Source of the DNA: Basidiobolus meristosporus CBS 931.73
Taxonomy: Eukaryota; Fungi; Basidiobolomycota
NCBI GenBank assembly: GCA_002104905.1
Contig: MCFE01000006.1
Span: 204,250 to 268,249, forward strand
Length of the DNA: 64,000 nucleotides
Direction: 5' to 3'
Shown: positions 2,501 through 64,000 of the stretch, piece after piece
Layout: each line of letters starts with the position of its first letter
Position numbering within the stretch: the stretch's first letter is position 1
Program-made: the position numbers and the translations under genes
The notes under the pieces: model-generated
What the model saw: the letters and a program-made list of their open reading frames with translations, nothing else
What the model was told of the DNA's origin: nothing
Databases searched by the model: none

Positions 2501-2559
2501 AATTCAACAATCACATTATTTTTCATATATACTTTTATAAGACAAGATTGATGCTAATA

Positions 2560-5650: not shown

Positions 5651-5690
5651 GGACTTGTGGGCAAACCATCAAACAAATCACCAAGTCATT

Positions 5691-36620: not shown

Positions 36621-36696
36621 AACTACTCACATTGACTGGTCTTAGCTTTGAACTGAGATTTTCAAGGTTGTCATTAGTCAAGAGCTTAGTGAATAG

Positions 36697-36905: not shown

Positions 36906-36959
36906 AATATGTTAGTAATCATTTCATCTGTAGGACTGTAGGACATGTTCACTAAGTTA

Positions 36960-40069: not shown

Positions 40070-40319
40070 AGGGGAAGTTGTGTTACATATATGTGTGTAT
40101 GTGGTGCCACAACTTTATTTATAATGCTTATTATGGTGGATCATCATTGAGTCTTACATTCATGTAGGTGCAATGTCACAAATACAAGACTGTCTTAAAT
40201 ACACATGAGTAGTGACAAAAAAAATTATATAATAACATTACATTGTTAATTGTCAAATTGTTTGCCCATGGGCAAGATTACTTTGATACAACACCATAAG
40301 AGAAGAGAAAAAAAACTAT

Positions 40320-41636
40320 GTGGCTTGTTGTGCATCAACATTCAAAACTTAGCCAATTTTACTCCGTTTGAAAATCTAGTACCCTAACTGATTTTCCCTA
40401 ACCCAAACATAACACATCCCAGTTACAGTTTATTTTATCCCACCTCAGAATATATTTTTAGCCATCATTGATGATGTAATTTTCATTTATCTTATGCACC
40501 TATGAACACCCAAATTGATTTCAATCAATCCAGTCCCTTGGCGCTTACTAATTCAACTTGATCAGAAAAGTATAAATAAAGTTTACTGAACCTTTTGGTT
40601 TAGTGTGTGTCTCAACAAAATTAAGATTCTGTCTCAGCAAAAATAAGAATCCAACAATTCTGTTCTAGTTTCTATCCAAGCCTAGTACATCTAGCACTCC
40701 AAAGAACACCAAGCCTAGCCTGCCTAGCAAACAAAAATCATTGTCTTTATAGCCAACCCAGCTATATCCAAGACCAATATTAGATCAGAATCTTTCTGCT
40801 AATATTTCTGCCACTCTCTGACAATTCTAAGATTCTGCACTTAATTGTCCCTTTGGTTCAGTTAAACCATTCAAGAGTTTTATTACACTTTCTCTTTGAT
40901 AGAACATGGCTAGTGTAGCAAGCCTCTTGGCCATTGATGTATCCAAGAGAAAAGTGTACTAAACTCTTTAATGAGTTACCTGAACATAAGTGACAACTAA
41001 GTGCAGAATCTTAGAATTGTCAAGAGTGACAGAAATATTAACAGAAAAGTTCTGGTCTAATATTGGTCTTGTATATGGCTGAGTTGGGCTATAAAGGCAA
41101 CAGAGTTGGTTTGCTATACAGGCTAGGCTTGGTGCTCTTGGGAGTGCTAGATATGCTAGGCTTGGGCTGAAACTAGAACAGAACTGCAGAATTCTTAACT
41201 TTGCTGAGGCACAATCTTAACTTTGTTGAGACACACACTAAACCAAAAGGTTCAGTAATCTTTATTTATATTTTTCTGATCAAGTTGAATCAGTAAGTGT
41301 CAAGAGACTGGACTAATTGAAATATGTTAGGGTGTTCATAGATGCATAAGATAAGTGAGAAATTGTATCCTTAATCAGCTAATGTTTTGGCAACTGCTAA
41401 GTGGTGGATAGATCTCAGATGACTAATAACTTGGAAAGGCTTAGCAGATCAGTTGAGGATGTAGTGACCACATGAAAATCAATCAGGTGTGACAGCTAAA
41501 AATAGATTCTGGGAAGTGATAAAATAACCACAACTGGGATTAGTAATGTTTGGGTTAGGAAAAATCAGTTAGGATACAAGATTCTCTAATAGAGTAAAAT
41601 AGGCTAAGTTTTAAATATTGATGCACAACAGCCATG
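40320..41636. repeat. Large imperfect palindrome or foldback element (~600 bp arms, centre ~40920)
   Basis: 40320-40460 is the reverse complement of 41485-41636, and 40490-40905 of 40945-41355; ~120 bp extra in the right arm. Confidence 0.85.
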
Positions 41637-41784
41637 AAGCATGCAGACAGCATTGGAAGCATTGCAAGGATGATAGCTAGTGTTCTGCCAAACAAGTCAC
41701 ATTTGACCATTCACCAGTCACTATTATACCAGCAATATCTTGCCAGCCACTTGATAGTTCTATAACAGCACCAGGCTGTACTTG

Positions 41785-44330: not shown

Positions 44331-45100
44331 AGTATGTCAATTGCAGCAGGTGTGCATATGTGTAGAGGTTAGTGAGCAGGATGTCATAGTATATTTTAAT
44401 TCAAACTATAGGTGAATTACTCAAGATAGTAGTGTGTAAGCAAATACAAAGGGGTGATTTTACAGAGAAATATATGAATTGTGCAAGGGGAGGTAGAAAA
44501 GAAAACACCATTTAGCAAATTAGTATGGTAGCATTATACAGAACTAGCTGTAGGTTGCTTACAGCTGTGATAATGCCATCAGAAGCTTGTAAAGAGGCCG
44601 CCAAAACACTGTCAAGTTTTTTGCCATATAAGGCAATAGGATGTACTTGCCAGTTAGATCCATTCAGATAGTTTTAAAGCACACCAAGTTAGCAACAATG
44701 CCATGCAACCCTTGGCAAAACAATTTACAAAAACTGTTATATTTTATCAGCCTTATTTGGCTGTAAAATTAGCAAAATGCTGTTGTGATCCCATCACAAG
44801 ATTGTGTAGATGGTCATTGATTCCAAGCTGCTGGTATTATAGTGATCTCCTGATGAGATCTTGCCAGCTGATCTGGATTGGATCCACCTGTGGGACCAAA
44901 CTGTTTTTCATTGGGATATGGTAGTACCTGCAACTTGACTAATCTTCCTATCTCCCCACACATTTGCTCCATAGGAAACTCCCACTAGGAGAAGCAAGGC
45001 CTCATATTCTCCACACACCAAGCAAGATGTAGTCAAGGGTTGATGCAGTAGCAGTCAAAGAGTACTATGTATCTAGTGATAGATTAACTAAGCTTAGTTT

Positions 45101-45174
45101 ATTGGTAGATATATCTAATTCTAATCATTGGTAGATATCTAATTCTAATCATTGGTAGATATCTAATTCTAATC
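45101..45174. repeat. Minisatellite, 3 x ~24 bp (ATTGGTAGATATCTAATTCTAATC)
   Basis: Directly visible tandem units. Confidence 0.9.
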
Positions 45175-45659
45175 TAGCACTCTATGGCTTGGCAATCTGT
45201 AGCCCTAATGCAAGTAATCAATGCAACTCAAGAGGTAGCTTACATCTATCAGCTTGCCCAAGTGATCACAATTATTTTGAACTTTGTCTGTGAGAACATA
45301 TTAATTTTTTTGCATTGGATACAACCTATATTATGCCCTAAAACGCTAGAATGAAATCAGTTAAAAAAATTGAGTAGAGCAACCTCCTGCCTAACTACAC
45401 TGAGTTACCTGATATAAGACTTTTAATAATCTGAAAGTAGCTACATTGCCAGTACCATTCAAGGTATCAGTACCATATTTATATCAAATATGGCTGGAGT
45501 CAAGATTACCAAGTATACAGTTGCTCTTTACAACTTCCAATTAAATGAAAGCTACTCCAGTACACTTGAATTGAGTAAACTAATTTATTATTGTAGTGTG
45601 CCACATCCAAGTATATCTGAGGCACACTTGCATACATATAAGCAGCCTTATGTTATATA

Positions 45660-46040
45660 ATGCTACTCACCTGACTTAGTCACTTAAATCATTACCTATA
45701 AATCTTAGAGTATACTGACCAAATTCCTTGATGCATCTATACACTCGGAATATTTTCACCAAAAAATAAGGTACCTAGTACTTGAAAATTCTCAAAGTTG
45801 TCCAAGCTGCCCCAAACCTTGCACACATTTTCTTGGGATCTTACTGAACATATTCTTTATATTTGTTTCTCCAAAATCAGGTTAAAGTATAAACTCTACT
45901 TTTGCATTTAACAAATCTTAAGTGAAAACCACATACACTACTTGCTTTCCCAATAACTTCCAATATCCCCAGAACTCTTACAACAGACCACATACTCTAC
46001 TTGTTCTCCCAATTACTTCCAATACATCCAAGACTCGTAC
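45660..46040 (+). repeat. Degenerate Copia-family LTR
   Basis: 'ttagtcacttaaatcattacc...ctcaaagttgtccaag...ctcttacaaca'. Confidence 0.65.
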
Positions 46041-47220
46041 ATTTGTGAATAATTTCCTTGTGTCTAAGCAAGTGCATGTGTTTTAAGACTCTACTCAGCT
46101 TATTCTTGTATTCCAAGCTACTTATTTACAATATAGCTTGTATAATATCACCTATTTTTCAAGATAGTGGAAGTCTGGAGCTACTGAAAGATATTTGCAG
46201 AATTAGTGCTTTATGCTATGTACACCAATGATACAGGGAAGTTAAAGAATCTATAGTGAGTGTGTCTTTATCAATAGTGATGGAAAGTCCAGGGAGAATG
46301 TCATGACAATCTGGAGCCCTTTGGATGACATTGGAGTATCTGATAGCATCAACTTCAAGTATTCCGATTTTGAGTATTTGAGGTTAAACTTAACCAGAAG
46401 TTTGTGGGGACTTGAAAGCTGATATAGTAGGATCTGAGTGGCCAAGTCAGTAAGTATATATAGGCATAGCCAAATAATCTACAACTGCATCTGTACCCAT
46501 TTAAGAGATTGTACTAGAAAGTAGTACAACAGTAGAGAGAAGTGGTAATCCTGAAAGGGATATTGATTCAATATGTGTCAAGGCTAACCCAAACAAGTCA
46601 TGATGCCAATATACCACCGTGAGAATTTTAGCAAAGTAGTGAATGGGACTCCATTGAACCAAACTATGAGGCACTGACTGCTGTAGGTTTTCTCAACGAT
46701 CACCAACAAAATACCCGACACAAATGTGCAAAACCATAAATCAAGTAATAGATGTCACACCCATTGGCAAAACGTTAGGACCACTTGGAGTCAACCCTAT
46801 GTCCGAGATGCAATGAGTCAAACCTCACTAGAGCATGATCAAAAATATGCATCCTTGAGCCTGTATAACTTTCACCAGTAAGTAACGCAACATATTAGAG
46901 AGATTTTACCAGGATTACTGTATAATATATGGCGTACAATATATTATAGAATGATACCATAGGGAGGCATTGCGATTTCCTCCACTTCACAAACTCATAC
47001 CGCTATAAAATGTGAAGGGAATATGGCTGAAATGTAATTCGATTGAACAGCAATTGCATTGTAGAAAGCAGGTACTAAACATACCATACTCTGCTGATGG
47101 CAACTATGGCTCTGCATATTGAAAGGATATCCACACCACTCAATGGTACAAACCAATCGCCATTGATGTGATGACGCTGTTTCATTTGGTAGCTTGGTGA
47201 GATTCATCTTGTGAGATGTA

Positions 47221-47727
47221 TTGCGAACGCTACGGAGTTGGCCAATCATCAAAATAAAGATCGCAAATTCCAATCCCCCCGAATCACTCGTCTATTGTTC
47301 CGCAACCGGCTTAGCTATCCTGCAGATGCTTCCGCAATGCTTCACCAGAGGCATGAGCACATCACTTCCAACCAAACAATCCAACGGCGAGCATCTCATT
47401 TTCGCGGAACCATCACGAAACCAAGGGACAATTCTACCAACTTTGGAACCATGGTTTAGACTGAGTCATGAAGCAAGTCGAAACAATCATGATTTTACAC
47501 CTAACCAATTAGTTGGTAATCCATTGTGTACAACACCTTTGCTCATTCTTCAGAATCATGGTGGGATCGAGGTCAAACAAAGGATCAGGAGCACTGGATT
47601 CACCATCCCACTAAGCTCTAGATGCAAATATACACCCGTTGTGCTCGCCTTTGACCCCCTCCACTACTCAGCAGCTATAGGTCAACCCCCTCCCCCCGAA
47701 TATATTACCACCGGTGAGCTGAAGTGA
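47221..47727 (+). CDS. Hypothetical ORF ending in a PPPPEY motif
   Basis: 168 aa open frame in CpG-normal DNA; no family recognised and start uncertain. Confidence 0.25.
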   Translation: MRTLRSWPIIKIKIANSNPPESLVYCSATGLAILQMLPQCFTRGMSTSLPTKQSNGEHLIFAEPSRNQGTILPTLEPWFRLSHEASRNNHDFTPNQLVGNPLCTTPLLILQNHGGIEVKQRIRSTGFTIPLSSRCKYTPVVLAFDPLHYSAAIGQPPPPEYITTGELK

Positions 47728-49708
47728 GCACCAGAGTAAAATCATAGGCCAACTCCACATCGAGGCACTTGCTTTGTTCATAAGCCCATCCTTCAAGATG
47801 TCAAGTGACAAAATATCACGTATGTTTCAACTTATCCACCACCGAACTCCACTTGAAACCTTGGAAACCTCCGAAATCACCCACAAGAAAGTAGGGAGTG
47901 GTTCGCATGGTTGTTCCGACCTAGTCTGCAGAGGGATTACCACCCCAACCACCTATGGGTCACTCTGGCGGTAAGAGAACCCCTCGTTTTGTATGCTGCT
48001 CGTTCATGACATCCCGCACCCCGTAATCCCTAGGTCAGTATTCAATTGCATATCTCGACCCCGATGGGGCTAGGTTTCACTCGAGCTTTACTGGACAGAA
48101 AATCGCCTCTCCCGTGCGGTATCATGAGAGTGATGTTATGTTACCCATAGATTTCCGAGGCCGATCTCAGAGAGCGAATACTGCCAAGCTCCAGTGAGCT
48201 TCACCGTCAAGAGCACTGATAGCTAAGGATGCGCCAGTTAAGAGCCTGTCTGGATGCATATATAGCATAGCACGGCGCCTTTTGGCGGACGCCAAACCAT
48301 CTGGATCCTTTAGAACTGCAGGCGGCTGAGGTACGGCGGGTCAGGACTGGTTCAAGGGGAATGAAGCTGTTTCGGGTTGAAAAGCATCCTACTCGCCTAA
48401 AGGGCTCGCGCCAGCCTTGAGCCTCGAGAAGTCAGGTTTCTGGTCGAGCCATGAAGACAGTCTCATCATCTTACCCGCTTACTAATTCGTTATCCCTAGT
48501 TCATTCTAGTACAAACCAAAATAACCGGAACCCCCATGTTGACCGAGCTTACCATCTTCGAATCATGTGAGTCTACGGGAGGGGCCGAGGTCGGGTCACT
48601 GAACGTGATGGGATCATGAAGCAACCAAGATGAGGCGAGTTCCGCTTGACTCACGATTCGATGAGGGCTGATCAGGTCATGAACCAGTTGGCTGATTGTA
48701 TGATTAGGGCGATTCGCATCATCATGAGTCTTGCTGGGCAACAAATTTTAAGGGGTTCGGAAGAATTCTAGCGATCAGCTGTGGAGAATTCTCGGAAATG
48801 CCATGCAAACACCGCATCTCGAAGAGAAACCACTCTAGTAAAGCACGCGTTCGAAGCAGAACAATTGTGGTTCAGACTGGAAGTCATGGCGGGGCATCCG
48901 CGTGTCCGCCGCCGCCTATGGGCTGGCATCTGGGCCCCCATCCAAGCGCCATGCCCTCTTTTCTTGATGATATCATTTGCAATCAAGCATTACCATTTCT
49001 CAGGGAATTTCCCCGAGATACCATGAACAAATAACCCTATGGATCTCGGAATAGTTCGCTAATTGACACTCAGCCTCTGTAATCTGTTTGCCTCATGGCT
49101 GGTATGGTGCACTCACTGATCACGCTGGCAATTAGTTGTGGCATTCCAATCAGAATTCTGCCTTGATTCACATTCTTTCCATCAGTGTCATTCCCTATTT
49201 CAACCAGGATTATAATGACCCCAAGTTGAACACAAACCACCGGCCCAATGGAGGTGGCGGTTGATGTTGTGTGGGTCGTCTTGCGTATGGAGTCGAGGCG
49301 CGATCCTGGTGTGTATGCTCACAACGCCACAGGATCTACCGGTGAGTTCTATGATGGCCGTATGGCTGGCCAAACGCTCGCTGGACATCGTTGCTGAATG
49401 GGCTTGAAGCCCATAGGTGCAGATTGCTCCTTGTCCAAGAATGCCGCTTGTGCTGGCAGTCTTACACGGGCTGATAGGCCCGCTGCAGGGTTATTATTTC
49501 ATCGAATCTTAGGGTCAGAAACCGGTTACTCTAAATGACTGATACTTCTTCCTGACAAAAATGAGATGAATAATGATTCGTGATTACTATGGTAGGAGAC
49601 TGCGGATGGCGTTTGACCTCCACCCTCGGGATCTAGCCTTTCCCTATAAATACCCAGCACTTGAAAGATTGATCAGATCGATCCAAGCGTTAGAAGGCTG
49701 TTTTATAG

Positions 49709-50191
49709 ATGTTGATGTTGTGCTTTCTGTCGTTACTCATTGCTCTGCTCAATACCTCCCGGGTTCAGGGTGAATCGCCTCTGTCGCCTCCCACACGGGA
49801 TACGCCTGGCAACACATCGTCCAAGAAATCGGGGGTTTCGTATTGGTTTCTGGCCGCTCTGCTCCTAGGGGTCACTCTGATTGGCATAGTGGTTTACTAC
49901 GCGCGCCGGAAATTCAGACATTTCAGAGCAAATCGAGAGACAAAGCGTCGAATCAACATTGCCATTGGGAGCCATATTTACAAAGAAGATCTCCCTCAAC
50001 CACCCGAGGTACTGCCAAGATACTCCATGAAAAGCTCTCAAGTTACATTGGCCCCGCCCATAGTGGACGCAATCACTTCTGTTGCCATGAGAAGGCCACT
50101 TCATGATTCCAATGGCGAGTCTGTCCTGGTGGTTGTCCGGAACTCGCTGGATTCTGACGTAACTGTTGCGCCTCCATGCTATCGTGCCTAA
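49709..50191 (+). CDS. Small type I membrane protein with PY motifs, paralog 1
   Basis: Signal peptide, one TM helix, LPRY and PPCY; aligns with 51153-51629 and 53197-53724. Confidence 0.8.
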   Translation: MLMLCFLSLLIALLNTSRVQGESPLSPPTRDTPGNTSSKKSGVSYWFLAALLLGVTLIGIVVYYARRKFRHFRANRETKRRINIAIGSHIYKEDLPQPPEVLPRYSMKSSQVTLAPPIVDAITSVAMRRPLHDSNGESVLVVVRNSLDSDVTVAPPCYRA

Positions 50192-51152
50192 ACCCCATGT
50201 ACATCCGCTTCTTTTTGTTTCCGGGCGAACCGCTCTCAATAACCACGTTATGAGAAATTCGTGGCCGTTGTAAATAGCAGTCCGTGGCGATACTTGGCTA
50301 TCCGCTTTTTGGAGCGACCGGACTCTGTATCTACCATTTCTTGAGACATTGTTGATTTCGAACTGATAACTAATCCCGACCACTACCTACCAATCATTTT
50401 GTTGAATACCCTCTCATAAACCCAATAAACCGCGAGCAGTCCTCGTTATCCTCTGACATCGCCGTTGGATGCATCCTTTTTACGAGTGATAAGCCGGAGT
50501 CGGGTATTTACAATGCTCTGTGGAACGAACAAAACGTGCGTGGCCTGGATCTCTAACCAGAATACCAATCTGTGCTTAGATCCTTAAATTCACAAATTAG
50601 ATGAGCTTGGATCCGGAATCTATCCATCCCATGCTTAGTCAAGGTTTGCTACGCCTCTCCTGCATCGCTATTTGCCACTCTCGATGGATAGGAAGCGGAT
50701 CGTTTCTTTCGCAAAGCGAATGCTCGATGATGCTTTCTGGGGACTGTGGCTAGAGCGTAGATTGGCTAGGTTGCAACAGACATTCCCTACCATCGGCGAA
50801 TGATGCCCCACACATCCTCCTGGGTCCATGCTAGCCACGTTAACAAGCATGACGGAATGGTTGTTGCTTAACGATCAACTTTTATCACTAGCTGGATGCA
50901 CCCAATGACACTTTGGACTTGACAACGAGTGCGACGCTGTGATGCATGCCAGATTCGATGCCCTATTGGGCGCATACAGATGGTCTCTGTGTTTGGTGAG
51001 GCAGAAATTATCGCGATTTACCTGGATACAGAATTGCCGCACTGCATGGACGGCTGATCGTCGTAATATGACTCATTTGGAGTGATTTCGTGTTCCTGGT
51101 AGCGCTGCTATATAAGGAATAAATCTGGTCGGTAGATTTAGCGTAACACACC

Positions 51153-51629
51153 ATGCGATATCTCTTTCTTCTAACATCAGTGCTTTCTTGCAGTTTGTTA
51201 GTTTCATGCCAATCGTCCCTAGAGGTCAACAAGCAGCTCGAGAAGTCCTCTATCAAGACCCCGATCACCTACCTGCTTGGTGGTCTTCTATCGATAGTAG
51301 TGGTGGTTCTGGCCATCATGTATTTTGCCTATCGGGGCTGGAAGAACCTTCTAAATCGCCGCGAGTGTCAGCGCAGAATTCGACTCGCTCTGAACGACCC
51401 CAAGCTGTATCCGTCAGTGAATGCCACTGAGCTGCCCCCATACTCGTTTCGAGCATCGCAAGTGACGCTACCCAGCAATATGGTGGAGGCAATATCCGAG
51501 AAAACCTTGACTAGTTTAATTAGCGGCACCACATACGCATCGCAGGAACGTTTGGAGGTGATCATTGATAACTTTCACGGCCTACAGCAATCAACTGTAG
51601 TGCCGCCTCCACCTGTATATAATGCATGA
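51153..51629 (+). CDS. Small type I membrane protein with PY motifs, paralog 2
   Basis: Signal peptide, TM helix, 'RECQRRIRLAL', LPPY, 'SQVTLP', PPVY. Confidence 0.8.
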   Translation: MRYLFLLTSVLSCSLLVSCQSSLEVNKQLEKSSIKTPITYLLGGLLSIVVVVLAIMYFAYRGWKNLLNRRECQRRIRLALNDPKLYPSVNATELPPYSFRASQVTLPSNMVEAISEKTLTSLISGTTYASQERLEVIIDNFHGLQQSTVVPPPPVYNA

Positions 51630-53196
51630 TCCTCTACCTCTCTGTTATATATAGATTGTGCAACACTAGGGGATCCCCGAATCTTAGCTTACAAACCGCG
51701 CCCGTTATTACATTAGTAACCATGGATCATGCTTACTCATTGTACATTTGTGTTGATGCTGATTATAAATATCGAGAACTCAGTGCTAGTCCCGTCAGAT
51801 CACTTGATTGGTTTTATGGGAAACATGCCTGCGATAGTGGGCTAGGGTTAGGGTTGGGGTTGTGGGAGATCAGGCATCCATTAGAATTGGTGGCACAAGG
51901 TAGTACCGAGGACAAACAGTAAAATCCTAATTTGGCTGACTTGAAAGGAGGTGCCAATGCCCTTTGGATATATCAGACATCCTGGTATGAGATCGAAATG
52001 CATCTGTGATATCGACGTGCCACTGGAGTATGTCTTCCCTGATCTTGAGGCAAGCTGCGAAGTGATCTGGTATTCAGGCTGGGTGAGCTCATGACTGGGT
52101 ATGTTACGCTTGCTATGCTCATGCTCAATAATCCAATGTGTATCCCCTCCTCTCTGGACCTTGCTTGGTACAAACGAATAAGAAGTTCTCGATTCGTAGC
52201 TCTGAATCTCATGCATGAAGCTTGGTTGGACAACGCTCGCATAAGCTATGAACATTGTAATGGGACGAAATATCGTCATTGTCGCTTTGTTCGGTTTTGC
52301 GCAAACTCCATCGTGAGGTTGCTAAGGTTGATTTGCTCAGCATCATATGGTGGCAAGCTCAGTAAACGTTACGATTCCGTCGGAATATTGCATGATTTCC
52401 TGTCTTTAGGTCATGGGAAGTCAGCGAGGTGACAACATCATTTGATCCGAACGGTATTGGTGGCTGAGATTCACCGGGACCCTTGGATTATCTTTAAATC
52501 TTTCCTAGGATGAATAGTCCCTTGGGGGGTTTTAAGGGGTGTAATGGAATTTCCAAACTCAAGATTATTCGTCGTGAGAACCTATGTTCTATTGACTCAT
52601 CTTGAGTGCAGCTTGCATCTTCGATTCCCCCGTGACTGACGAGGGGATCAGCGGGATGGTTTGGAAATGGAAAGCCCAGCAGTTGCGGAAACAGCCAGCG
52701 ACGCATCAATTTCGAGGCTTCATTCGGGCCAGTCACTTGATGCATTTGGGCAGCCAGATACACTACAAGCTTCGAAGCCACGCTGGCCTTTGATTCACAC
52801 GTTAGTCACGGAAATGTTCAACTGGGTTTTTCATTTCGATGGTGGTGCTATGAAACTAGAAGCAACTACCTCCTATACCTCGCATACCGCCATGGAACTT
52901 CGTCTCATCAACATTAATTCACTTCTTCCAGGCAGCTATGGAGGCCTGAGATTAAACGCATTCTCAGTGAGGTATGGATGAGCCAAAAGTTTACTTATGG
53001 ATGGTATGCTCCCTCAGATGTACATTAGATTAAGGAATTTATGTTACACGGAGATTAGAAAATTGAAATCTACATAACAAAAGGGTTCATCGTTCATAGG
53101 GCTTGGCCAGGCCGTTGTTAGGCACTCCGTCACGCGTGTCTCCTGATAATTCCTTCTTCAGGACCACAGACAGGCCGATGTAGAAATGATTGCATC

Positions 53197-53724
53197 TCAA
53201 CGAGAGCAAAAGCTGATCTGTGCGATGGGCTCTTCTACCGTGTTGTACGATGGTGGCGAATTTATGGCCTCCGAGGTCTCTGGATTCCTCGAGGTCGAAG
53301 GTCGATATGGATCAATAGTGATTACAACTTGGTGAATACCGGAAGACCTGCTGAGCGCCTTCTCAGTGATCTCTGTGACGGTGTTTAGTGGCAAAGTCAG
53401 TTGTGAGCTCTTCTTTAGGTAATTGGGTGGAGTCTCCTCATCCCGCGTGTTAACGGCACTCCCGTTGTAGACGTGTCGATCAAGTGCTATCTTGACTCTA
53501 CGTTGGATTTCCCTTTGCAGGCGATACTTCTTCCACCAAAAGTACGCAGCAACAAATAGAGCGAGGCCTGCCAAAGTTGCACCGGCCACCACGAAGAAGA
53601 GGGAGTCGTTGGTGGAGGCAGTGGATGCGGTGTAGTCTGGGGAAGAATTTCTGGCGATAGTGGATACATTGGAGCTGACGGACATTCCTTGCTTCGAAGC
53701 CAAATCCATTTCACCCTTCAACAA
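53197..53724 (-). CDS. Small single-pass membrane protein with PY motifs, paralog 3 (5' end uncertain)
   Basis: TM helix, 'REIQRRVKIAL', PPNY, 'SQLTLP', PPSY. A CTGAC...AAG element just upstream suggests a missed 5' exon. Confidence 0.78.
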   Translation of the reverse strand: MLKGEMDLASKQGMSVSSNVSTIARNSSPDYTASTASTNDSLFFVVAGATLAGLALFVAAYFWWKKYRLQREIQRRVKIALDRHVYNGSAVNTRDEETPPNYLKKSSQLTLPLNTVTEITEKALSRSSGIHQVVITIDPYRPSTSRNPETSEAINSPPSYNTVEEPIAQISFCSR

Positions 53725-55421
53725 CTTGTAAGTCAGAAAGAATCAGCAACAATCTAGAAGAGAATGCGCACACTTTTCATTTGAAAGCAGACCACCTGTA
53801 GATATATATCAGGTTGCTCAGACTCGAGTATTGACATGCGGGGTGAGGGGCAGGGATTCGATCCGGCCGACAGCTGATCAATTAATCACATTGAAAAGTC
53901 TTTGGGCTGATTGAAATCCTTTGTGATCTGCATACTCTATCAACTTGTCCGGGAAGCACAATCCGTTCACCCACCAAGATATGGACTGTTCAGCGGGCAA
54001 ACTCACACTAGTCACAAGAATCGTTGGGTGCTATATTGTTAACTACACCATCATCAGTTATATTAAAATGAAAGACCGCGATCATTTCGATCCAGAAAAT
54101 CTAATGAATGTCTAAGCGAATAACGTACTACTGTATTGCCCATCTACTCTAATCGATGTATTAAAGTCATCTCTGAGGTCTTGTGTAATATGTGGTCTTA
54201 TTAACTCCTGGAAGTCTTGTGCTTTCCGTCTGATTGAAATCTATTCAGTGACCTCGAATCAGGATGAGTTTGGTTTGTGGGCTACAGGTTCTTGACGGCT
54301 CATCCCGTCCATGGCCGGCAAGCGAATCAAACCATTAGCAGCTGCTTTTAAAATGTGCAATTGTTCCTTGGCCTGCGCAGCCCTTACCGCCATCGATTTG
54401 TGCGGCTGTATGGCGCATTCTATGTTGCGAGCTATCTGGCACTCGGGCAGCACGATCCCAAGGAAGCACCAAAGAGATTGCGTTCTAATTATTTCTGCTA
54501 GGATGCTTTAGGTATAGAGATTGCAGTTTCGGGACCGGGTGTTCAAGCAGTATGTACGCAAATGATTTCCTCGCTTCCTTAAAAACTTGGCTCAGCTACC
54601 TATATAATTCCTCAATTTTTGGCAAAGCGGCTAGTGGGGGAGATGCAGATCGGGAATAACAGAGGGTAGAGTGCAATTGTAAGAGATTCAGCTGACTTGG
54701 TCTGGTGTCTGTTTGGCATTTAGAAAAGCAGATAAGAAAGCCCTGGCCAATGACCTCATCACTCCCCTATCGGGCGCTGCATATGTCTGATTGATATTTG
54801 GGAAGGCCAATATGGTTTGACTCAACACATAAAAAGGATGGAGATGCCTAGCTACATATCGTTGCATTAGAATGGTCGGAGTGCATATGCCATCAAAGCC
54901 TTAAACCGAATTCCACTAATAATTCCGCAGCAGGGATTTGTGCTCTACTAAGTGAAGTTTGAGCCATTCTTATTTGACCCTGCTCCTTGGCATTTCGTGA
55001 AAACCTACTAGACTCTAGGATCATGTCGTCAGTAAAATGGATCTTAGAATAGCACTTGCTGCGTATCATGGGAGGGTTCCTACATTGCTTATATTATTTG
55101 TACTGGATACACATTAGCTAGTTTCCATGCTGGTGTGGATTCCTTGTTAGCCCAAGATCATGCTAGAACACCCATTCAACAGGCCCTAATCATGAATATT
55201 AATTATTAATGCCCTTCATCTAGATCCAATTCAGGATTTACTTATGATCGCGAGCGATGAAATTAGCCGAGGCAACATCCTATCACTTGATCACAGCTTC
55301 CGCATCATCCGATTATTCATTGATCCGCTTAGCTACGGTACTTCCATTGATCTAGGATCGCCATTGTCATGTGACCTGATCACGCCTTTTTATTGTATCC
55401 AAAGTGACAATAGGGAATTCC

Positions 55422-56134
55422 ATGTCGCACCTGCCCATTCAAATGCAAAGCCAACGCAATTCAATAACCACACAAGAGGGCGCGAGCACTGAATCCCTGG
55501 AAAATAGTACCTCCGGGCTAAAGTACTACGAAATACCAGTTACCTTTATACAAGCCGGGGATCAAGGAGTCACCAAACCGAAGAAGAAAAGCGTGTCTGA
55601 GGATGTGAGCGACTTCTATTCAAATCTCATCGGGATCCCTTCAACGAGTGAGGAGTGTACAAAACAAGAATCTACATGGTGCGATGTTTGCTCCATGAAT
55701 ATTCTCTCGGAACGGTATGAGGAGCATATTCGGGGGACCGGCCATTTAGTGGCTAGACCGAATTTGGCCCCTACTCCTGATCCCATCTTTTTGAACGAAA
55801 AAAATATTGGTTATATGATGTTGAAAGATTCTGGTTGGGAGTACGAAGATGGTCTTGGGAAAAACAAGTCCGGTCGTAGACATCCTCTGCCCACAAAGTT
55901 AAAGTTAGATAAACTTGGACTGGGGCATAAGTACAAGAAGAAATATGTTCATGAGCAACAGGATATTTATGAGGCTGAGCAAAGAAAGGTAATTCCCAAT
56001 TATATTCTCGTCGCTCAGATACTAACTCTAAGAAGCAGAAACTCGACAGAAGAAAAACCCGCAAAGAGATCGTAGAGGAGCATGAAAGAGAACGGCGGAA
56101 ACGTATGGCGATGATAGCTTATATGAATCGTTAG
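55422..56134 (+). CDS. G-patch domain protein with a zinc-finger-like motif (GPANK1 C-terminus-like)
   Basis: 'WCDVC...EEHIRGTGH', G-patch 'NIGYMMLKDSGWEYEDGLGK...LGLG'. A short intron (GTAATT...CTAAC...CAG) leads to the last exon 'KLDRRKTRKEIVEEHERERRKRMAMIAYMNR*'. Confidence 0.85.
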
Positions 56135-56424
56135 ATTTTACTCCATGGTTATGTAAGCATATTTCGAAAAACAAATTGATCTTCGACTTTTTTGTTCATA
56201 AACTTCCTTGAATCGTAGAAAATGGATTTTTCTGATATCACATCACCACACTGTGGGGGTTACTCTAATAGAAAACTTGAGTGTGGTGTTGTTCCTTCGA
56301 CATCCTATTAGATATTTCCAACTGGACACCGTCTCATCCTAAAAGTTACCGTTTATTTCATCTCAAATCCGAAGGGCTCCAGACATCAATTGCAGAAGGA
56401 CAATGTAAATGCAAGGAGTATATT

Positions 56425-56658
56425 TTATGTAGCGATTTCTACGAACCCAGGGAAACATTGATCCAATGGTTTCCCATGCTTATTTTCAGAGTGCTCAGTC
56501 AGTGCTTTTGCTCTAATGGTGCACAAGAACGTTTGTCTGCAAGTTTGACAAATGACGGTTTGTGCTTTAGCGTTGGCCTTGAGTTGACTGGTTGCTCCTT
56601 TGCCAGCTTTCGCGGCATTGCGTTCGCGTTTGTGCTGGGCTTTCTGGCCGTTACCCAT
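56425..56658 (-). CDS. Small zinc-binding protein of the ZNF706 / At2g23090-like family
   Basis: MGNGQKAQHKRERNA...SQLKANAKA...CQTCRQTF...EHSENKH. Confidence 0.88.
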   Translation of the reverse strand: MGNGQKAQHKRERNAAKAGKGATSQLKANAKAQTVICQTCRQTFLCTIRAKALTEHSENKHGKPLDQCFPGFVEIAT

Positions 56659-57740
56659 GTTGGAGTATGAAAGCAGGTCAACTAAAGAAAGGAATGTTGA
56701 TTTACTCGAACAAGTCAGAACGCATTTATAGTCTGCACCTGGTTGCCCCCTTTTTGCCTTTCAAAAATAGAGCTACATCAACCAGTTTGATTGTAAACGT
56801 GTTCCACCGTTGGGACGGATTCCCCTACAGTCTTTTCGTACATAAAAGGAAAATATTAGGGATTAAGTGGGGCATTTCTGCAGCTTAACTTGCTACCCCT
56901 TAAGTAGTCAGGGGAACCTCCATGACGTTGTTATCAGATAACCCTGAACTTAATTGCGTTTCAGGAGTCTGTGAATTTCACCACATTGCTCTAAGCCTTG
57001 AAGTAGCGGGCTTTAACTGCTTGATGTGTATCTAGGACAATGATAATATGGAGATATAAACTAATAGGAATCCCTTGTAGAGTTTTCATTTGTTGACAAT
57101 CCCTTGATATCCTCACCCTAGTCCACTGTTTCAGAGTACAAACTAGGTGTGGGTTTCCAAAACTGGTTTTGTATACAAAATCAAGCATCAATGCACTAAG
57201 CCAACGGAACAACTATGCATATTATCACAAGATAAAGCTGACAGTAAATGAAAGAAAATATTGTAATACTTGTTCTAGCAAAAGTATAACATAGTGTGGC
57301 TGGCCAACTTGCCTACAAAAGGAAAATTAGCTTAGAATAAGAATTGAGTGAGGAAGCTAAGATATACCACCAAAGGAAATCAAATGTATGATATAATATC
57401 TGAGAATGGGCTTTGGCCACTGAGAAAGTGTGAATATTGCATTTTAACCTAGCTTATCAGCAAGTGAGAATCATACCCTCTGCCATATAATATATTTCAC
57501 TTTTAAATTCTTGCTTTGATTTCAACAAAGTATCCTATCTATTACACCACTAGCAGTACACTATCAACCTAGCAGTGTTAGTGTAGCAAACAGGAAACAT
57601 TGTGGAAGTTATGAAATAGTAAAAGAACTATACTATAGGGGCAGGATGACAATAGGTAAGAAATTGTGGTTTTAGTAACACAAGATTCAGAGGCTGCACA
57701 TTACAAGAGAAGTTATTTTCAAGCAAATAAGGGAATGATC

Positions 57741-57803
57741 AGGAGAGAGGGAAAGCTGTAAAGTGGCAAAATCTTTATCTACTAATGATAAGTATCTAAA
57801 GAC
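57741..57803 (-). mobile_element. Old degenerate 3' tail of SINE module B
   Basis: 'aaatctttatctactaatgataagtatctaaaga' versus B 'aaatctttatttacttatgacaagtatctaaaga'. Confidence 0.6.
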
Positions 57804-57925
57804 TGTTGTAAGAGTCTTGGAGATATTGGAAGTGATTGGGAGGACAAGTAGATTATGTGGTTTTCACTTAATGATTTATTGAATGTAAAAGTAGTATTTA
57901 TACTTTTACATAGTCTTGGCATTAC
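57804..57925 (-). repeat. Copia LTR truncated at the junction with the terminal array
   Basis: Matches 2153-2275, stops at ...GGCATTAC and is followed directly by TTAGGG. Confidence 0.9.
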
Positions 57926-58705
57926 TTAGGGGGGAGACAGTCACCAACAGGTGAAATCTTTATTTCAGTTGAAACAAAGAAGCCAGCGCTACTGTTGTAG
58001 CTTTGATACAAGAGTGTGTAGCTGAGGGGAATTTGTAGGTAAGTTAATAAGAAGTGATGATAGTTCTTCAGTGCTCAAGACACTGTTCAGTGGGAAGGGG
58101 GGTAGCAAGAGAGGTAAGAATGACTTGTGAACAACATTACTGAGGGGAATGTGATAAGGATTGATATTCATCATAAAGGGAGTGTGCTGCTGCAGATATT
58201 GCTGCCAAAGGTCTGTCAAGTACTTCAGGTAGGCCAGCTTGGGTTTTTCTGACTGCAGAATATATTGAGCAAACTTCCTGACTTCAGGATCTCCAAGTAT
58301 AGTTCTCCAGCAGGAGCCAGGTGTTGTGTGGTGTGTTCTCTTCCAGGCCTTAATCAGTGGGTTGTTGCAGTTGTGAAGTCTGAGGTATAATCTGGTTCTA
58401 AGGTAGAGAAGTCTGATCTTATAGGGCATAAACCTAAAAGCACCAAGAATAGCATGTCTGTAGGGGCATTCAGGCAAATGAGGCACCAGGGAGGTAATGC
58501 ACCATACTGCAAACTTGTCAAGCTTAGTGCAGTCTCTAGAAGTAAGAGAGAGATGTGGTAAGCCAAATTCCAGGACAGGGAAGACAAACTGCTTGAGTAG
58601 AAGGAGGCAGCTGGGAGCTGAAGTGGTGGGAGGAGTAATGGCCAGTAGCTTGTGGAGTGCCTGGCTTGCCAGGATAATTCTCTTCTTCAGGTGTGCTCCA
58701 GAGTC
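57926..58705 (-). mobile_element. Module A copy 1: 5'-truncated non-LTR (LINE-type) retrotransposon 3' end
   Basis: Frame 58705-57989 is open for 238 codons and carries the RT thumb signature 'HLKKRIILASQALHKL...LLLKQFVFPVLEFGL...KLDKF...ILGAFGFMPYKIRLLYLRTRLYLRL'. Tail AATAAA-GATTTCACC-loop-GGTGAC...CCCCCCTAA. Confidence 0.85.
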
Positions 58706-59232
58706 TTAGGGGGAGGAAAGTCACCAAATGGTGAAATCTTTATTTACTTATGACAAGTATCTAAAGAAGCCATGTTAATCTGAACTAATTCCTAGAAAGG
58801 TAGGTCTGAAAGATATCTTCCTGGTAAGCCAGGTCTGAGAGTTGAGAAGGTGAGTGGTACTATATTTCCTAGTTAGCTAGGTCTGAGAGAGGTTTCCTGG
58901 AAAGCCAGGCCTGAGAAGTGAGAATCTGAATATATCTGAGCTAAGTTATACTGGTTTGCGGTAGCTGGATTGTGGCCGGAAAGGCCAGTAGACTGGGGGA
59001 ACTCAGATGTATTTCTGGGCAATCACTGGCCAAATATACCAGGCAAATCTGGCCATTAGCATTTAAGGATTTCAGCCAATCAGAGCCTTTACTTTGCCCA
59101 ATGGTTGATCAAGCCATCTCCCAATGAGCACACATCAATTTATTAATCAAATTTTTTGCTGGATCCAGGATTTGAACCCACAACCATGGGTATGGAAGGG
59201 TTAGGGATAACTACAAGGCTAAGTGTTCTTGG
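58706..59232 (-). mobile_element. Module B copy 1: full-length tRNA-derived SINE (~527 bp)
   Basis: A box at 59211-59221 and B box GGTTCAAATCC at 59168-59178 with tRNA spacing; 3' tail shared with A and D. Confidence 0.8.
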
Positions 59233-59263
59233 TTAGGGGAGACAGTCACCAACAGGTGAAATC
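59233..59263 (-). mobile_element. 31 bp stub of the module A 3' end
   Basis: ttaggggagacagtcaccaacaggtgaaatc followed by a new TTAGGG. Confidence 0.85.
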
Positions 59264-59460
59264 TTAGGGTGTAGGTGTTATAGTAAGGGCTAGGAAAAGG
59301 TTAGAAGAGCAGGGGGTCAGGGGGACGCAGTCCCCTAGAGAATAAAAAAGCAGGGGGTTTGGGGAATGCAATCCCCCATACTCCTCCCATACTCTTTAAA
59401 TTCCCGTTGGATTACTTTTCTCTCATTCTTGATTCTGGTCACTTAGGGTTAGAATTCCTC
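59264..59460 (-). repeat. Module C copy 1 (truncated)
   Basis: Same left end (TTAGGGTGTAGGTGTTATAG) as 60800 and 61762. Confidence 0.85.
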
Positions 59461-59644
59461 TTAGGGGGGGAGGAAAGTCACCAAGTGGTGAAATCTTTAT
59501 TTACTTATGACAAGTATCCAAAGAAGCCATGTTAATCTGAAGTAATTCCTAGAAAGCTAGGTCTGAGAGATATCTTCCTGGTAAGCCAGGTCTGAGAGTT
59601 GAGAAGCTGAGTGGTACTGTATTTCCTAGTTAGCTAGGTCTGAG
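59461..59644 (-). mobile_element. Module B copy 2: 5'-truncated SINE
   Basis: First ~185 bp of B on the + strand. Confidence 0.85.
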
Positions 59645-60000
59645 GGTTAGGGGGGAGGGGAAGTCACCAAAGTAGGTGAAATCTTTATTTGATTTCAGAC
59701 AAGTCTAACTACAAATAAAGAAGCCAGCTGGGAATAGAAGATTCCCAAAGTAAACACTCAGTTGAATATGAATAAATCTAAGCTAAAGTTAAGGCAGTAT
59801 CCCAGAGTACACTGGAGCTCAGGTTCATGGGGGAGTGAAGTAGATAAGCTTGAGAGATATAATAATCTTTCAGGAAGTGGGTAACAGCAGGTGAAGGGGA
59901 GTTTTTGATAAGTGAAGTGAATCTTGAGAGCAGAGATTCCTCTAATGAGAAGGTCTTGTAAACTGGAGAATCAGGAAACTCTTTAAAGGCATGGTCAGTA
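59645..60000 (-). mobile_element. Module D: 3' end of a second, diverged LINE-type family
   Basis: Same tail architecture with a 6-nt loop. Its ORF end 'PDSPVYKTF...FTSLIKNSPSP...LKDY...LH' resembles A 'PGSCWRTI...FAQYILQSEKP...LTDL...QH' only weakly. Confidence 0.6.
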
Positions 60001-60799
60001 GTGTCAGGATACGTTGCACGTTGTGTATATGTTCTTCTACATTGGGGGAATATATCGTGATGTCGTCCAGATACACGAGGGCGCATTCCCATCGTAGATT
60101 TCCTAGCACCTTGTCGATCATCCTTTGGAATGTAGCGGGGGCATTGCACAAGCCAAAGGGTAGTTGGTTCCATTTGTATAATCCAAACAATGTTATAAAA
60201 GCGGTTTTGGGTTGATCTTCCAGGGCTACTTCTACTTGCCAATACCCAGAGATTAAGTCAAGAGAGCTAAAATATTTAGTTCCAATTAATCTGTCCAAGA
60301 GGTTGTCTATTTGCGGTAGCAGATACACGTCCTTCCGGGTGACAGCGTTCAATTTCCGGTAGTCAATGCAAAAGCGTCACTTTCCGTCTTTCTTTGGGAC
60401 TATCACTACGGGGGAGGCCCACGGAGACTGGCTCTCTGTAATGATGTTGTCTTTTAATAAAGTTTCAATCGTCTCTTTGATATAGTCTGTGTCAATTTTC
60501 AAATTCCTATAGGCTTTTTGCTTGATGGGGTATTTGTCGGCAAGGTGGATTTGGTGATATACCCCAGGTATATGACCAATTACTTGGTTCTTAGAGAATA
60601 CTCAGGCAAGCGGACATATTCCTTCTAGGAATTTGTCTTGTAATTTAGGTGGTAGACCAGGGTCCACATCTAGTTTGGGGAGTTCTTCTTCTGGTTCTTC
60701 ATTTGGAGGTGGTCCTTGGTCGTTTCCGTCAACTTCCTCTAAGTTTAACAATGGCACTCCTCTAGGCAATGCCACCGTGTGTTGCCCGTTGTTAACCAC
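60001..60799 (-). mobile_element. Internal Ty3/Gypsy pol fragment (linker plus RT up to YLDD); no LTR
   Basis: '[29 protein letters not shown]', 'FSSLDLISGYWQV', 'LPFGLCNAPATFQR', 'VYLDDI'. Confidence 0.93.
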
Positions 60800-61015
60800 T
60801 TAGGGTGTAGGTGTTATAGTAAGGGCTAGGAAAAGGTTAGAAGAGCAGGGGGTCTGGGGGACGCAGTCCCCTAGAGAATAAAAAAGCAGGGGGTTTGGGG
60901 GATGCAATCCCCCATACTGCTCCCATACTCTTTAAATTCCCTTTGGATTACTTTTCTCTCATTCTTGGTTCTGGTCCCTTAGGGTTAGAATTTCTCCTCC
61001 TAACCCTTATCACCC
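60800..61015 (-). repeat. Module C copy 2 (truncated)
   Basis: Same left end as the other copies, truncated after ...CCTTATCACCC. Confidence 0.88.
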
Positions 61016-61706
61016 TTAGGGGGGGAGACAGTCACCAACAGGTGAAATCTTTATTTCAGTTGAAACAAAGAAGCCAGCGCTACTGTTGTAGCTTTGATAC
61101 AAGAGTGTGTAGCTGAGGGGAATTTGTAGGTAAGTTAATAAGAAGTGATGATAGCTCTTCAGTGCTCAAGACACTGTTCAGTGGGAAGGGGGGTAGCAAG
61201 AGAGGTAAGAATGACTTGTGAACAACATTAATGAGGGGAATGTGATAAGGATTGATATTCATCATAAATGGAGTGTGCTGCTGCAGATATTGCTGCCAAA
61301 GGTCTGTCAAGTACTTCAGGTAGGCCAGCTTGGGTTTTTCTGACTGCAGAATAAAGTGAACAAACTTCTTGACTTCAGGATCTCCAAGTATAGTTCTCCA
61401 GCAGGAGCCAGGTGTTGTGTGGTGTGTTCTCTTCCAGGCCTTAATCAGTGGGTTGTTGCAGTTGTGAAGTCTGAGGTATAATCTGGTTCTAAGGTAGAGA
61501 AGTCTGATCTTATAGGGCATAAACCCAAAAGCACCAAGAATAGCATGTCTGTAGGGGCATTCAGGCAAATGAGGCACCAAGGAGGTAATGCACCATACTG
61601 CAAACTTGTCAAGCTTAGTGCAGTCTCTAGAAGTAAGAGAGAGAAGTGGTAAGCCAAATTCCAGGACAGGGAAGACAAACTGCTTGAGTAGAAGGAGGCA
61701 GCTGGG
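61016..61706 (-). mobile_element. Module A copy 2: 5'-truncated LINE 3' end
   Basis: Near-identical to 57926-58616 with scattered substitutions; frame open from 61706 to 61080. Confidence 0.88.
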
Positions 61707-61761
61707 GTAGGGGGAGGGAAAGTCACCAAGGTAGGTGAAATCTTTATTTGATTGCAGACAC
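61707..61761 (-). mobile_element. 55 bp stub of a D-type 3' end
   Basis: gtagggggagggaaagtcacc-aaggta-ggtgaaatctttatttgattgcagac. Confidence 0.8.
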
Positions 61762-63220
61762 TTAGGGTGTAGGTGTTATAGTAAGGGCTAGGAAAAGGTT
61801 AGAAGAGCAGGGGGTCTGGGGGACGCAGTCCCCTAGAGAATAAAAAAGCAGGGGGTTTGGGGGATGCAATCCCCCATACTGCTCTTATACTCTTTAAATT
61901 CCCATTGGATTACTTTTCTCTCATTCTTGGTTCTGGTCCCTTAGGGTTAGAATTCCTCCTCCTAACCCTTATCACCCTAACCATAAATATTTTTACCCTA
62001 CAATTGGCACATTGTCTGCTCATATGGTGGGCATGTCTGGGCCAATATTTGTCTCCCTATACTGTCCATACGCTCTGTATAAGTCTTGATGACTATTTAA
62101 TTAATAAATTGTTATTTTTAATATATATCTAATAATTAATGGGATTCATCCCAATCTGACCACAATCCCATATTTTGATAAGCTTCGGGCACCATAAATT
62201 GCGCGGCCCTAATATGATAAAAAAATTCATGGCCAATACAAATTTTCTGTAACCTGATTGCTTTTACCAAATATAAAGTGTATCCAAAAGTTCAATATAT
62301 ATTATGGCTATAATAGAAACTTTATTGGACACCATCGCAACTACTACTTATGTTCTATGCGCACATGTATCCCGCGGGAATTGTAAAACTTAGCCACGTG
62401 GTACAAAAGTGCTTTAATTTTTCATCATGATAGTTTTACATGAGTTCCTAACGCACTTTGAAAGTACGCAGTAGCCATACCCCAACAGGTTTTAAGGATG
62501 TCCACTAGCTACGTCTACTTGTGTCTAGCGGGAGCCATCAATCATCAGCCGCGCAATACTGAAATGCTTTTATTTTTCATCATGCTAGTTTTGTATGAAT
62601 CCCTAACGCACTTTCATAGTGCGCGGTAACCATACCCCAACAGGTTTTAAGGATACCCACTTGCTACGTTTACTTGTGTCTAGCGGGAGTCATCAATCAT
62701 CAGCCGCGCGGTAAAAAAGTGCTTTTATTTTTCATCATGATAGTTTTACATGAGTCCCTAATGCACTTTTATAGTGCGCGGTAACCATACCCCCAGAAAG
62801 TAGTGTGGATGCTTACTTTAAACGCTCACTTGTGTATTGTACGGAATATCAAGAAACAGCCGCGTGGGAATGGAACATCATAGAAAAGCATTGCTTTGTT
62901 GTTAGCAAGTATTGATGCGCAAATAGTGGTACTATGTGAATTATTGAGTAACTATTTACTCTAGTTGGTTCCAAGATATTCCTAGACAATATGCTCAAAA
63001 TCAATATTAGCATCAATAGCTTGCTCTTTGATCACTAAACCACCGCACCCAATATGCGGTGGCCTTGGTTTTGTCTAGCCGTCAAGGAATGAAACCAGAG
63101 TACAGTCACAAGAGAGGCAAAAGTGAAATGTGATGAAGTAAGTGTATATGAAAGTAATATAAATCTACAGGACAGAAGAGAACAACTAGTAGTTAAACAG
63201 CACTCACTGACACTCCACCG
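61762..63220 (-). repeat. Module C copy 3, the longest (1.46 kb), apparently non-coding
   Basis: Variant telomeric left end, paired GC hairpins and 155 bp tandem repeats; no convincing ORF. Confidence 0.75.
62406..62875. repeat. Three tandem 155 bp units within module C
   Basis: TGCTTT(T/A)ATTTTTCATCATG anchors at 62410, 62565 and 62720. Confidence 0.92.
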
Positions 63221-63242
63221 AGGGTTAGGGTTAGGGTTAGGG
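63221..63242 (+). repeat. Interstitial telomeric tract (~3.5 TTAGGG units)
   Basis: agggttagggttagggttaggg. Confidence 0.95.
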
Positions 63243-63766
63243 GGGGGGAGGAAAGTCACCAAGTGGTGAAATCTTTATTTACTTATGACAAGTATCTAAA
63301 GAAGCCAAGTTAATCTGAAGTTTTTCCTAGAAAGCTAGGTCTGAGAGATATCTTCCTGGTAAGCCAGGTCTGAGAGTTGAGAAGCTGAGTGGTCTATATT
63401 TCCTAGTTAGCTAGGTCTGAGAGTGGTTTCCTGGAAAGCCAGGCCTGAGAAGTGAGAATCTGAATATATCTGAGCTAAGTTATACTGGTTTGCGGTAGCT
63501 GAATTGTGGCTGGAATGGCCAGTAGACTGGGGGAACTGAGAGGAATTTCTGGGCAATCACTGGCCAAATTTACTAGGCAAATCTGGCCAATTAGCATTTC
63601 AAGGATTTCGGCCAATCAGTGCCTTTACTTTGCCTGATGGTTGATCAAGCCATCTCCCAATGAGCACACATCAATTTATTAATCAAATTTTGCTGGATCC
63701 AGGATTTGAACCCACAACCATGGGTATGGAAGGGTTAGGGATAACCACAAGGCTATGTGTTCTTGG
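63237..63766 (-). mobile_element. Module B copy 3: full-length tRNA-derived SINE capped by the telomere
   Basis: A box TAGCCTTGTGG (63745-63755) and B box GGTTCAAATCC (63702-63712); same 5' end as copy 1. Confidence 0.82.
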
Positions 63767-63768
63767 TT

Positions 63769-64000
63769 GGGTTAGGGTTAGGGTTAGGGTTAGGGTTAGG
63801 GTTAGGGTTAGGGTTAGGGTTAGGGTTAGGGTTAGGGTTAGGGTTAGGGTTAGGGTTAGGGTTAGGGTTAGGGTTAGGGTTAGGGTTAGGGTTAGGGTTA
63901 GGGTTAGGGTTAGGGTTAGGGTTAGGGTTAGGGTTAGGGTTAGGGTTAGGGTTAGGGTTAGGGTTAGGGTTAGGGTTAGGGTTAGGGTTAGGTTAGGTTA
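63769..64000 (+). repeat. Telomere (TTAGGG)n, right chromosome end
   Basis: Perfect G-rich-strand repeats to the window end; the last ~10 nt are TTAGG variants. Confidence 0.98.

Follow-up and report, generated by a model that had tools for sequence, protein, structure and literature searches.

The last 6 kb of the window, a 64,000-nucleotide stretch of Basidiobolus meristosporus CBS 931.73 (contig MCFE01000006.1), forms a chromosome end in which 11 modules stand in a single direction (57926–63770) and are followed by ~39 TTAGGG repeats (39.2 units). The array as described is real. Three of its families, a long interspersed nuclear element (LINE; module A), a short interspersed nuclear element (SINE)-like element (module B) and a third family (module D), are present as head-to-tail 3′ pieces, and with moderate confidence we propose that these were added singly by the reverse transcriptase (RT) of the LINE onto the chromosome's G-rich 3′ end. 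The proposal builds on what was observed directly: the polarity of the modules, their tails, the letters at the junctions, the LINE-type RT, an apurinic/apyrimidinic endonuclease (APE) in full-length relatives of A, and RNA polymerase III (Pol III)-type boxes in B.

Self-BLAST and a listing of the junctions gave the order A1-B1-a-C1-B2-D1-Gypsy-C2-A2-d-C3-(TTAGGG)3.5-B3-telomere, bearing out the module order and polarity given in a preliminary description of this DNA. All modules are on the minus strand. The array opens at the broken end of a Copia-type long terminal repeat (LTR) with A1 (57926–58705), the 3′ 780 nt of the LINE, comprising the end of an open reading frame (ORF; 57989–58705; thumb and linker, 238 aa) and a 63-nt 3′ untranslated region with two hairpins. 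It is followed by B1 (58706–59232), a full-length SINE-like element of 527 nt that carries the shared tail and, at its 5′ end, an A box and a B box; by a, a 31-nt A tail (59233–59263; 30/30 identity to the start of A1); by C1 (59264–59460), a 197-nt piece of element C with 96% identity to C2 and C3; and by B2 (59461–59646), a 5′-truncated B of 186 nt, 95–96% identical to B1 and B3. D1 (59647–60001), a 355-nt 3′ piece of the third tail-sharing family, adjoins an RT-encoding fragment of a Gypsy pol gene (60002–60799; Pfam RVT_1 E value 1.7e-24; two in-frame stops). Further out lie C2 (60800–61015; 216 nt, 98% to C3), A2 (61016–61706; 691 nt of the LINE 3′ end, 98.4% to A1), the 55-nt D tail d (61707–61761; 94% to the start of D1), C3 (61762–63221), the longest C at ~1.46 kb, and an interstitial TTAGGG tract on the plus strand (63222–63242; 3.5 units, (GGG)(TTAGGG)3). 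The last module, B3 (63237–63770; ~534 nt), is again a full-length SINE-like element with A and B boxes and is 94.5% identical to B1. The units of the terminal telomere (63771–64000, plus strand) show 98% matches, and the final 10 bases of the window are irregular. As had been noted for the coding and SINE modules, the frames of A, D and Gypsy and the promoter boxes of B all read on the minus strand.

Within every family the left end is fixed, at TTAGGG or a variant of it, and the right ends differ in length, giving the polarised pattern of target-primed reverse transcription already recognised in this array. The truncation of right ends that had been described holds except for B1 and B3, which are both full length and have an identical Pol III-type head at their right ends. 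A, B and D have in common a ~45-nt tail whose minus strand folds into two hairpins, with a C run and UAA after them (fold z −3.7, −2.3 and −4.4, respectively); the stems are kept while the loops vary, and the small stem is constant. Eight copies of the tail motif are found in the last 6.1 kb and no exact copy in 1–57925, and the probability of all eight falling in the last 6075 bases by chance is 7e-9 (binomial). A scan of the window for the 16-nt core of the tail, allowing three mismatches, gave one extra degenerate copy at 57765 and three weak matches upstream, and none on the opposite strand. Copies of one family differ by scattered substitutions, as reported before, at 10 of 687 sites between A1 and A2, 23 of 521 between B1 and B3 and 4 of 216 between C2 and C3, or 1.5–4.4% of sites.

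Ten of the 11 telomere-type junctions contain 1–1.5 repeats, in agreement with the earlier count of one TTAGGG or variant at each; one of them, at the start of d, has the variant GTAGGG, and the interstitial tract is the only one with more than 1.5 repeats. Poly(A) and target-site duplications, named in the preliminary description as signs that would speak against its reading, are missing from the 11 junctions, none of which has a poly(A)-derived T run (0/11 with more than two T before AGGG) or a duplication beyond telomere letters or module sequence in common. Nested insertion is not seen in the window array, as the distal remainder of a module never stands after the next module. Where a junction begins with the first T of TTAGGG, as seven do (57925, 58705, 59263, 59460, 60799, 61015 and 61761), the base before it is always C (C frequency 0.18). 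Three of these belong to C modules and may bring their own C; the C may also reflect a G at the 3′ end of the template or a preference in nicking.

The proteins nearest to module A are gene models of B. meristosporus (96% and 88% identity), and two gene models of this species, P0001 and P0002, stitch together three and two same-strand A ends, which indicates tandem A copies at other loci. The 238-aa frame of A is the thumb and linker of a non-LTR RT (predicted model pLDDT 87), and the top three VIA matches of the C-terminal model are R2 and L1 RTs, with Z scores that count as modest, being below 8 (7.8, 7.4 and 7.2; rmsd ~5). Foldseek gave no match with this C-terminus, and the matches in an ESM Atlas search were unnamed clusters only. 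Relatives P0003–P0007 form a tight family (E values of 1e-230 or better, the next drop being to 1e-46), and a second search gave a similar result save for one tandem-repeat RT at 1e-102. P0004–P0007 have both APE and RT and are 42–63% identical to the C-terminus of A; P0004 has 923 aa, with Exo_endo_phos at its N-terminus as well as RVT_1, and stops at the same point as A, without a CCHC motif. RVT_1 is present in P0003–P0006, with L1 ORF2p as the best PDB sequence match (E value 1e-21), and Exo_endo_phos in the relatives has a Pfam E value of 7e-5, just under the curated cut-off. Neither the window copies nor the five relatives have a C-terminal CCHC motif or restriction-like endonuclease (RLE, also REL; PD-D/ExK), their ORF stopping ~240 aa past the RT core, and the view of A as a lineage separate from MoTeR and Cnl1 stands. 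The full-length relatives of A have an APE endonuclease, neither an RLE nor none; the reading of A as endonuclease-free was rejected.

In a comparison with 122 other endonuclease domains, N, Y, GDxN, D and SDH proved to be retained in that of the family. D stands at the position of the metal-binding E in all three sequences with the region (E in 97 of the 122), and both the conserved T and the hairpin loop that precedes the catalytic D are missing. The model of the domain (pLDDT 85) matches the ExoIII/APE1, L1, TRAS1 and R1Bm endonucleases at E values of ~1e-8 to 5e-7. An RT tree of 248 of 257 proteins (FastTree, midpoint root, no labelled R1 references) placed the family on a long branch (1.29, support 1.0) without a named or well-supported sister, the support for the sister group being 0.76. 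A metagenome scan gave 28 loci from 311 candidates, all of them distant RTs (24–36% identity over long matches) and none of the family of A. Read on the telomeric G strand, A contains 16 GGG and no CCC.

Judged by its sequence features, module B (~530 nt) is a putative SINE-like element of the Pol III type. An A-box/B-box pair, 32 nt apart, occurs only at the two B heads in the 64 kb, and a scan with the same consensus patterns found such a pair in 10 of 5000 Markov shuffles. B has no ORF of 120 aa. A tRNA origin is unconfirmed since the tRNA finders make no call: ARAGORN at default settings, Rfam tRNA models and a search of the folds for a cloverleaf were all negative for B, in which CpG loss may hide a tRNA. 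The sense strand has no U4 run, a weak signal (p 0.05–0.09), and for lack of a terminator the predicted Pol III transcript would probably extend beyond the tail into the module that follows. The LINE family probably has a passenger as well, a short Pol III RNA. LINE/SINE pairs of the eel UnaL2/UnaSINE1 type similarly have a common 3′ stem-loop, a tRNA-type head and a LINE-derived tail; those pairs are dispersed, whereas in the present array the copies are stacked at the tip and the tail has the telomere complement as its end. An internal 9-nt telomere complement lies between the two boxes of the B head (59198–59206 and 63732–63740) and is used by one of the joints seen in short-read contigs.

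For the ~73–74-aa frame of D, which ends at 59778, no protein homolog was found (0/47 candidates at E ≤ 1; family profile score −1.0). An 80-aa piece of a second LINE RT heads P0001 and P0122 (residues 1–80), on the same strand and ahead of the A ends; it is 36–40% identical to P0111, P0146 and P0155, and as a lead only, we regard this second RT family as a candidate parent of D. D runs natively past 60001 in contigs of sequencing runs X1 and X3, so the boundary of D and Gypsy is a clean switch, in the same sense and with zero telomere repeat; an X3 contig aligns from exactly 60002, the start of Gypsy. Element C shares the TTAGGG start without the hairpin tail. C3 consists of a degenerate telomere-like start, GC hairpins, an inverted telomere-like tract and a 155-bp repeat in 2.5 copies, and close to its two truncation points C folds back on the inverted tract (z −3.5). 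C was rejected as a SINE for its lack of boxes and its many U runs, including ten U4 runs. Two GC-rich hairpins with G5/C4–5 arms are found in C (60848–60915; also in C1 and C3) and may be comparable to the double-hairpin elements of early-diverging fungi. Run X3 has loose ends at 59460 and 61011, inside the inverted telomere-like tract, where a different LTR-like start follows C; LTR elements therefore also insert into such arrays.

The module-to-tail type of junction is common in the B. meristosporus genome, as seen in short-read contigs from other loci. Runs X1, X2 and X4 come from one sample, possibly the source of the window, and are therefore not independent. In run X1, all 15 best joints of 44 lead from the interior of a module, or from a B head, to the start of a module, and in a second contig joint list 14 of the 15 listed (of 187) do so; the best-supported joints connect a B head to another tail. 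The linkers contain 0–3 repeats, several of them variant (GTAGGG, CTAGGG), in contrast to the 98% perfect terminal tract, and among those listed there is no poly(T) in the linkers and no T run at the loose ends. Run X3, apparently spliced over a G-patch gene, has A, B, D and Gypsy on separate contigs; this is no more than a weak hint, and the depth of contigs was not taken as an expression level.

For the 15 junctions whose phase is clear, overlap with the phase of the telomere was 1.9 nt on average (0–5), as compared with 0.38 for random phase (0 of 20,000) and 1.38 for best phase (p 0.04). The test took seven of the 11 window junctions, leaving out a B head, a variant, an extra C and the end of C3, and eight of 18 listed contig linkers, leaving out ten with variant or untemplated letters, B heads and one duplicate. 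Such an overlap fits an RNA template briefly paired with a free 3′ end, which is possible for telomerase and a LINE RT alike. Copying of the single repeat by the RT from its own RNA is favoured because the first junction joins a broken LTR without a telomere seed (overlap 0), because variant repeats recur despite the near-perfect cap, and because FoTeR keeps 3–7 repeats at its 3′ junctions (PMC12857005) and SART1 is reported to need at least three (PMC7265360).

The favoured mechanism, addition by the LINE RT, would proceed as follows. The RT would bind the hairpin tail of an A, B or D RNA, whose end is probably CCCUA(A), and prime on a free G-strand 3′ end with 0–5 nt of overlap, so that the single repeat at the junction would mostly be copied from the RNA. 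The end could arise by erosion or breakage, or through a nick made by the element's APE close to the base of the telomere cap, after which the distal piece would be lost. An early stop would leave a 5′ truncation, or the RT would switch template, as from D to Gypsy and possibly to C. Telomerase would then recap the end and the cycle repeat, and some junctions may later have spread to other ends via recombination or read-through RNAs.

Several observations weigh against this proposal. The residues retained in the endonuclease across subfamilies suggest that putative cutting has been kept, and canonical insertion into a telomere tract yields the same polarity, as described for TRAS (PMC7265360). 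The overlap departs from the best-phase null at p 0.04 only, and telomerase healing also uses short overlaps. The APE is seen in the relatives and not in the truncated window copies or their own subfamily, the closest relative with a full RT, P0003 (72%), starting after the endonuclease region; the choice among APE, RLE and no endonuclease posed earlier is thus settled as APE, with most catalytic residues, for the full-length relatives. Short spacers may also be survivors, since tracts of at least three repeats are reported to break in MoTeR arrays, the stable junctions of which are single repeats (PMC7367193). The preference for terminal addition over endonuclease insertion in the preliminary description is therefore plausible, but single repeats are no proof of it by themselves. 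These points would suit a TRAS-like process in which the APE, its core residues and predicted fold conserved, nicks the G strand inside a TTAGGG tract and arrays with long spacers are purged by breakage; the one 3.5-repeat tract in the array agrees with it. Against this process speak the 1–1.5 repeats at 10 of 11 junctions, compared with the 3–7 of the RLE-type FoTeR (PMC12857005) and the requirement of SART1 (PMC7265360), the recurrence of variant repeats across different joints, and the altered endonuclease with its D for the metal-binding E and missing T and hairpin loop. We consider it unlikely, and still a live rival, because the APE of the relatives keeps most catalytic residues.

Also adverse to addition by the LINE RT are the depths of the contig joints: the listed truncation joints are at 3.2–7.4 times the unique-flank (single-copy) depth, some junctions must therefore be present at several loci as copies, and recombination or read-through RNAs also spread pieces. 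Spread by recombination, which the preliminary description had put forward as the alternative to its own reading, accordingly finds partial support in these identical junctions; inside the array, on the other hand, no multi-module block is repeated and every truncation point is different. An origin of the array chiefly in DNA recombination between ends, by break-induced replication or microhomology-mediated template switching from few old insertions, would also agree with differences between A1 and A2 that cluster near one site and suggest exchange between subfamilies, with the absence of a repeat between D and Gypsy, with the extension of MoTeR arrays by break-induced replication (PMC7367193), and with a C that has no tail and ten U4 runs, hence is not Pol III-like. 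We find this improbable: the 29 of 44 joints ranking below depth 207, the weakest of the best 15, are likely present in one or two copies, and each switch lands on the 3′ end of a module. Recombination contributes but leaves the switches onto 3′ tails unexplained. Two further adverse points concern the contigs themselves, as none of those listed spans the junctions of the window array and joints with long repeat tracts are hidden in short-read contigs. The module order could in principle be an assembly chimera of short repeats, in keeping with a unique contig that stops at 57829, inside the LTR, and with the irregular last 10 bases. We judge this very improbable given the abundance of the junction type in contigs, the private substitutions in the copies, and the 2.8 kb of flank that match run X1, possibly the source of the window, with 0 differences.

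Left of the array, the preliminary picture gains two elements, the cut Copia LTR in which the array starts and a decayed tail beyond it. The LTR (57804–57925, minus strand) retains 122 of ~350 nt, and its native continuation, known from other copies at 2153–2500 (beside gag/integrase ORFs), 42402–42751 and elsewhere, is not TTAGGG. It cuts a decayed B-type 3′ tail (57741–57802, minus strand; 79–81% identity to B over 53 nt, E value 3e-8 to 4e-9), whose stem changes are partly compensatory (one sequence only). With this tail directly left of the LTR, the position was likely a chromosome end before.

The observed/expected ratio of CpG is 0.05–0.11 in the repeat blocks of the window and 0.8–0.9 in the gene blocks, with sharp domains (repeats at 1–18000 and 35000–46500; genes at 19000–34000 and 47000–56700) that suggest methylation-driven decay of repeats. 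CpG depletion affects A, B and D as well as the initial 220 nt of C. The Gypsy piece (60002–60799) and distal C (62000–63221) are multi-copy with CpG kept (0.68–0.75) and are possibly young families. The window also has a decayed Transposase_21 (CACTA-type) element adjoining an LTR copy (42477–43960) and a subtelomeric cluster of three small ORFs (49709–50191, 51147–51629 and 53197–53742) with a common layout of a hydrophobic helix, a basic stretch and a PPxY-like motif.

Among known systems, the closest in anatomy and polarity is TRAS, an R1-clade element of Bombyx that like the present one has APE and RT, lies in telomerase-type repeats and has its sense on the C-rich strand, which puts its 5′ end distal (PMC7265360). 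TRAS and SART differ in having a poly(A) end and two ORFs, whereas here we find a hairpin tail, no trace of poly(A), a partner SINE and a protein of ~920 aa that lacks CCHC, and membership in R1 is not claimed. MoTeR1/2, FoTeR and Cnl1 likewise form fungal telomeric arrays with the 5′ end nearest the tip and 5′ truncations; MoTeR2 is, like B, a shorter partner with a common 3′ end, and LTR elements also enter arrays of this type. They differ by their C-terminal CCHC/REL endonuclease and group with CRE/R2, in contrast to the N-terminal APE without CCHC here. Athena and Coprina are described as attaching to exposed G-rich overhangs via short reverse-complement telomere stretches (PMC8557442), much like the step proposed here, but have an RT of the Penelope-like type, no endonuclease, and hammerheads, as opposed to a LINE-type RT with APE; no ribozyme was found over 56000–64000 (0 Rfam matches at E ≤ 1), a search that can miss divergent ones. 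HeT-A, TART and TAHRE of Drosophila share the head-to-tail arrangement, the 3′ ends toward the centromere and the G-rich antisense strand, and differ by poly(A) tails and the absence of telomerase repeats (PMC10088271), the present array having a TTAGGG cap. With relatives that combine APE and RT without CCHC/RLE on a long unnamed branch, A is neither of the MoTeR/FoTeR/Cnl1 kind nor of the Athena/Coprina kind. By analogy, the system would combine the APE and polarity of TRAS with the end attachment of Athena/Coprina.

The fungal telomere-targeted LINEs in the literature searched, MoTeR, FoTeR and Cnl1, all have an RLE endonuclease, and no APE-type nicking enzyme was found there among fungal telomere elements. 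In the accessible literature, many journals and Repbase lying outside the search, we found no report of Basidiobolus telomeric elements or of a SINE confined to telomere arrays, and the list of telomeric elements in one review has MoTeR1 as its sole fungal entry, with SINEs unmentioned in that list (PMC10088271). On a speculative view that we hold to be rather doubtful, the Basidiobolus APE-type LINE lineage would be an end-healing, template-jumping polymerase with a blunted endonuclease in a genome of very many small chromosomes; it would extend broken or eroded ends directly, support the first telomere-specific Pol III SINE and a second tail-mimic family, capture unrelated RNAs (Gypsy, C) and act as a second end-maintenance system beside telomerase. 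The ~60 to many hundreds of small chromosomes reported for Basidiobolus (PMC3281927) would offer many ends per nucleus for sampling. An APE-type telomere LINE in an early-diverging fungus would, if true, represent an independent origin of telomere targeting. The system would stand between TRAS-like nicking and Athena/HeT-A-like end attachment with the TTAGGG cap still present, and this intermediate position would make it possible to test how a LINE passes from inserting into telomeres to extending them.

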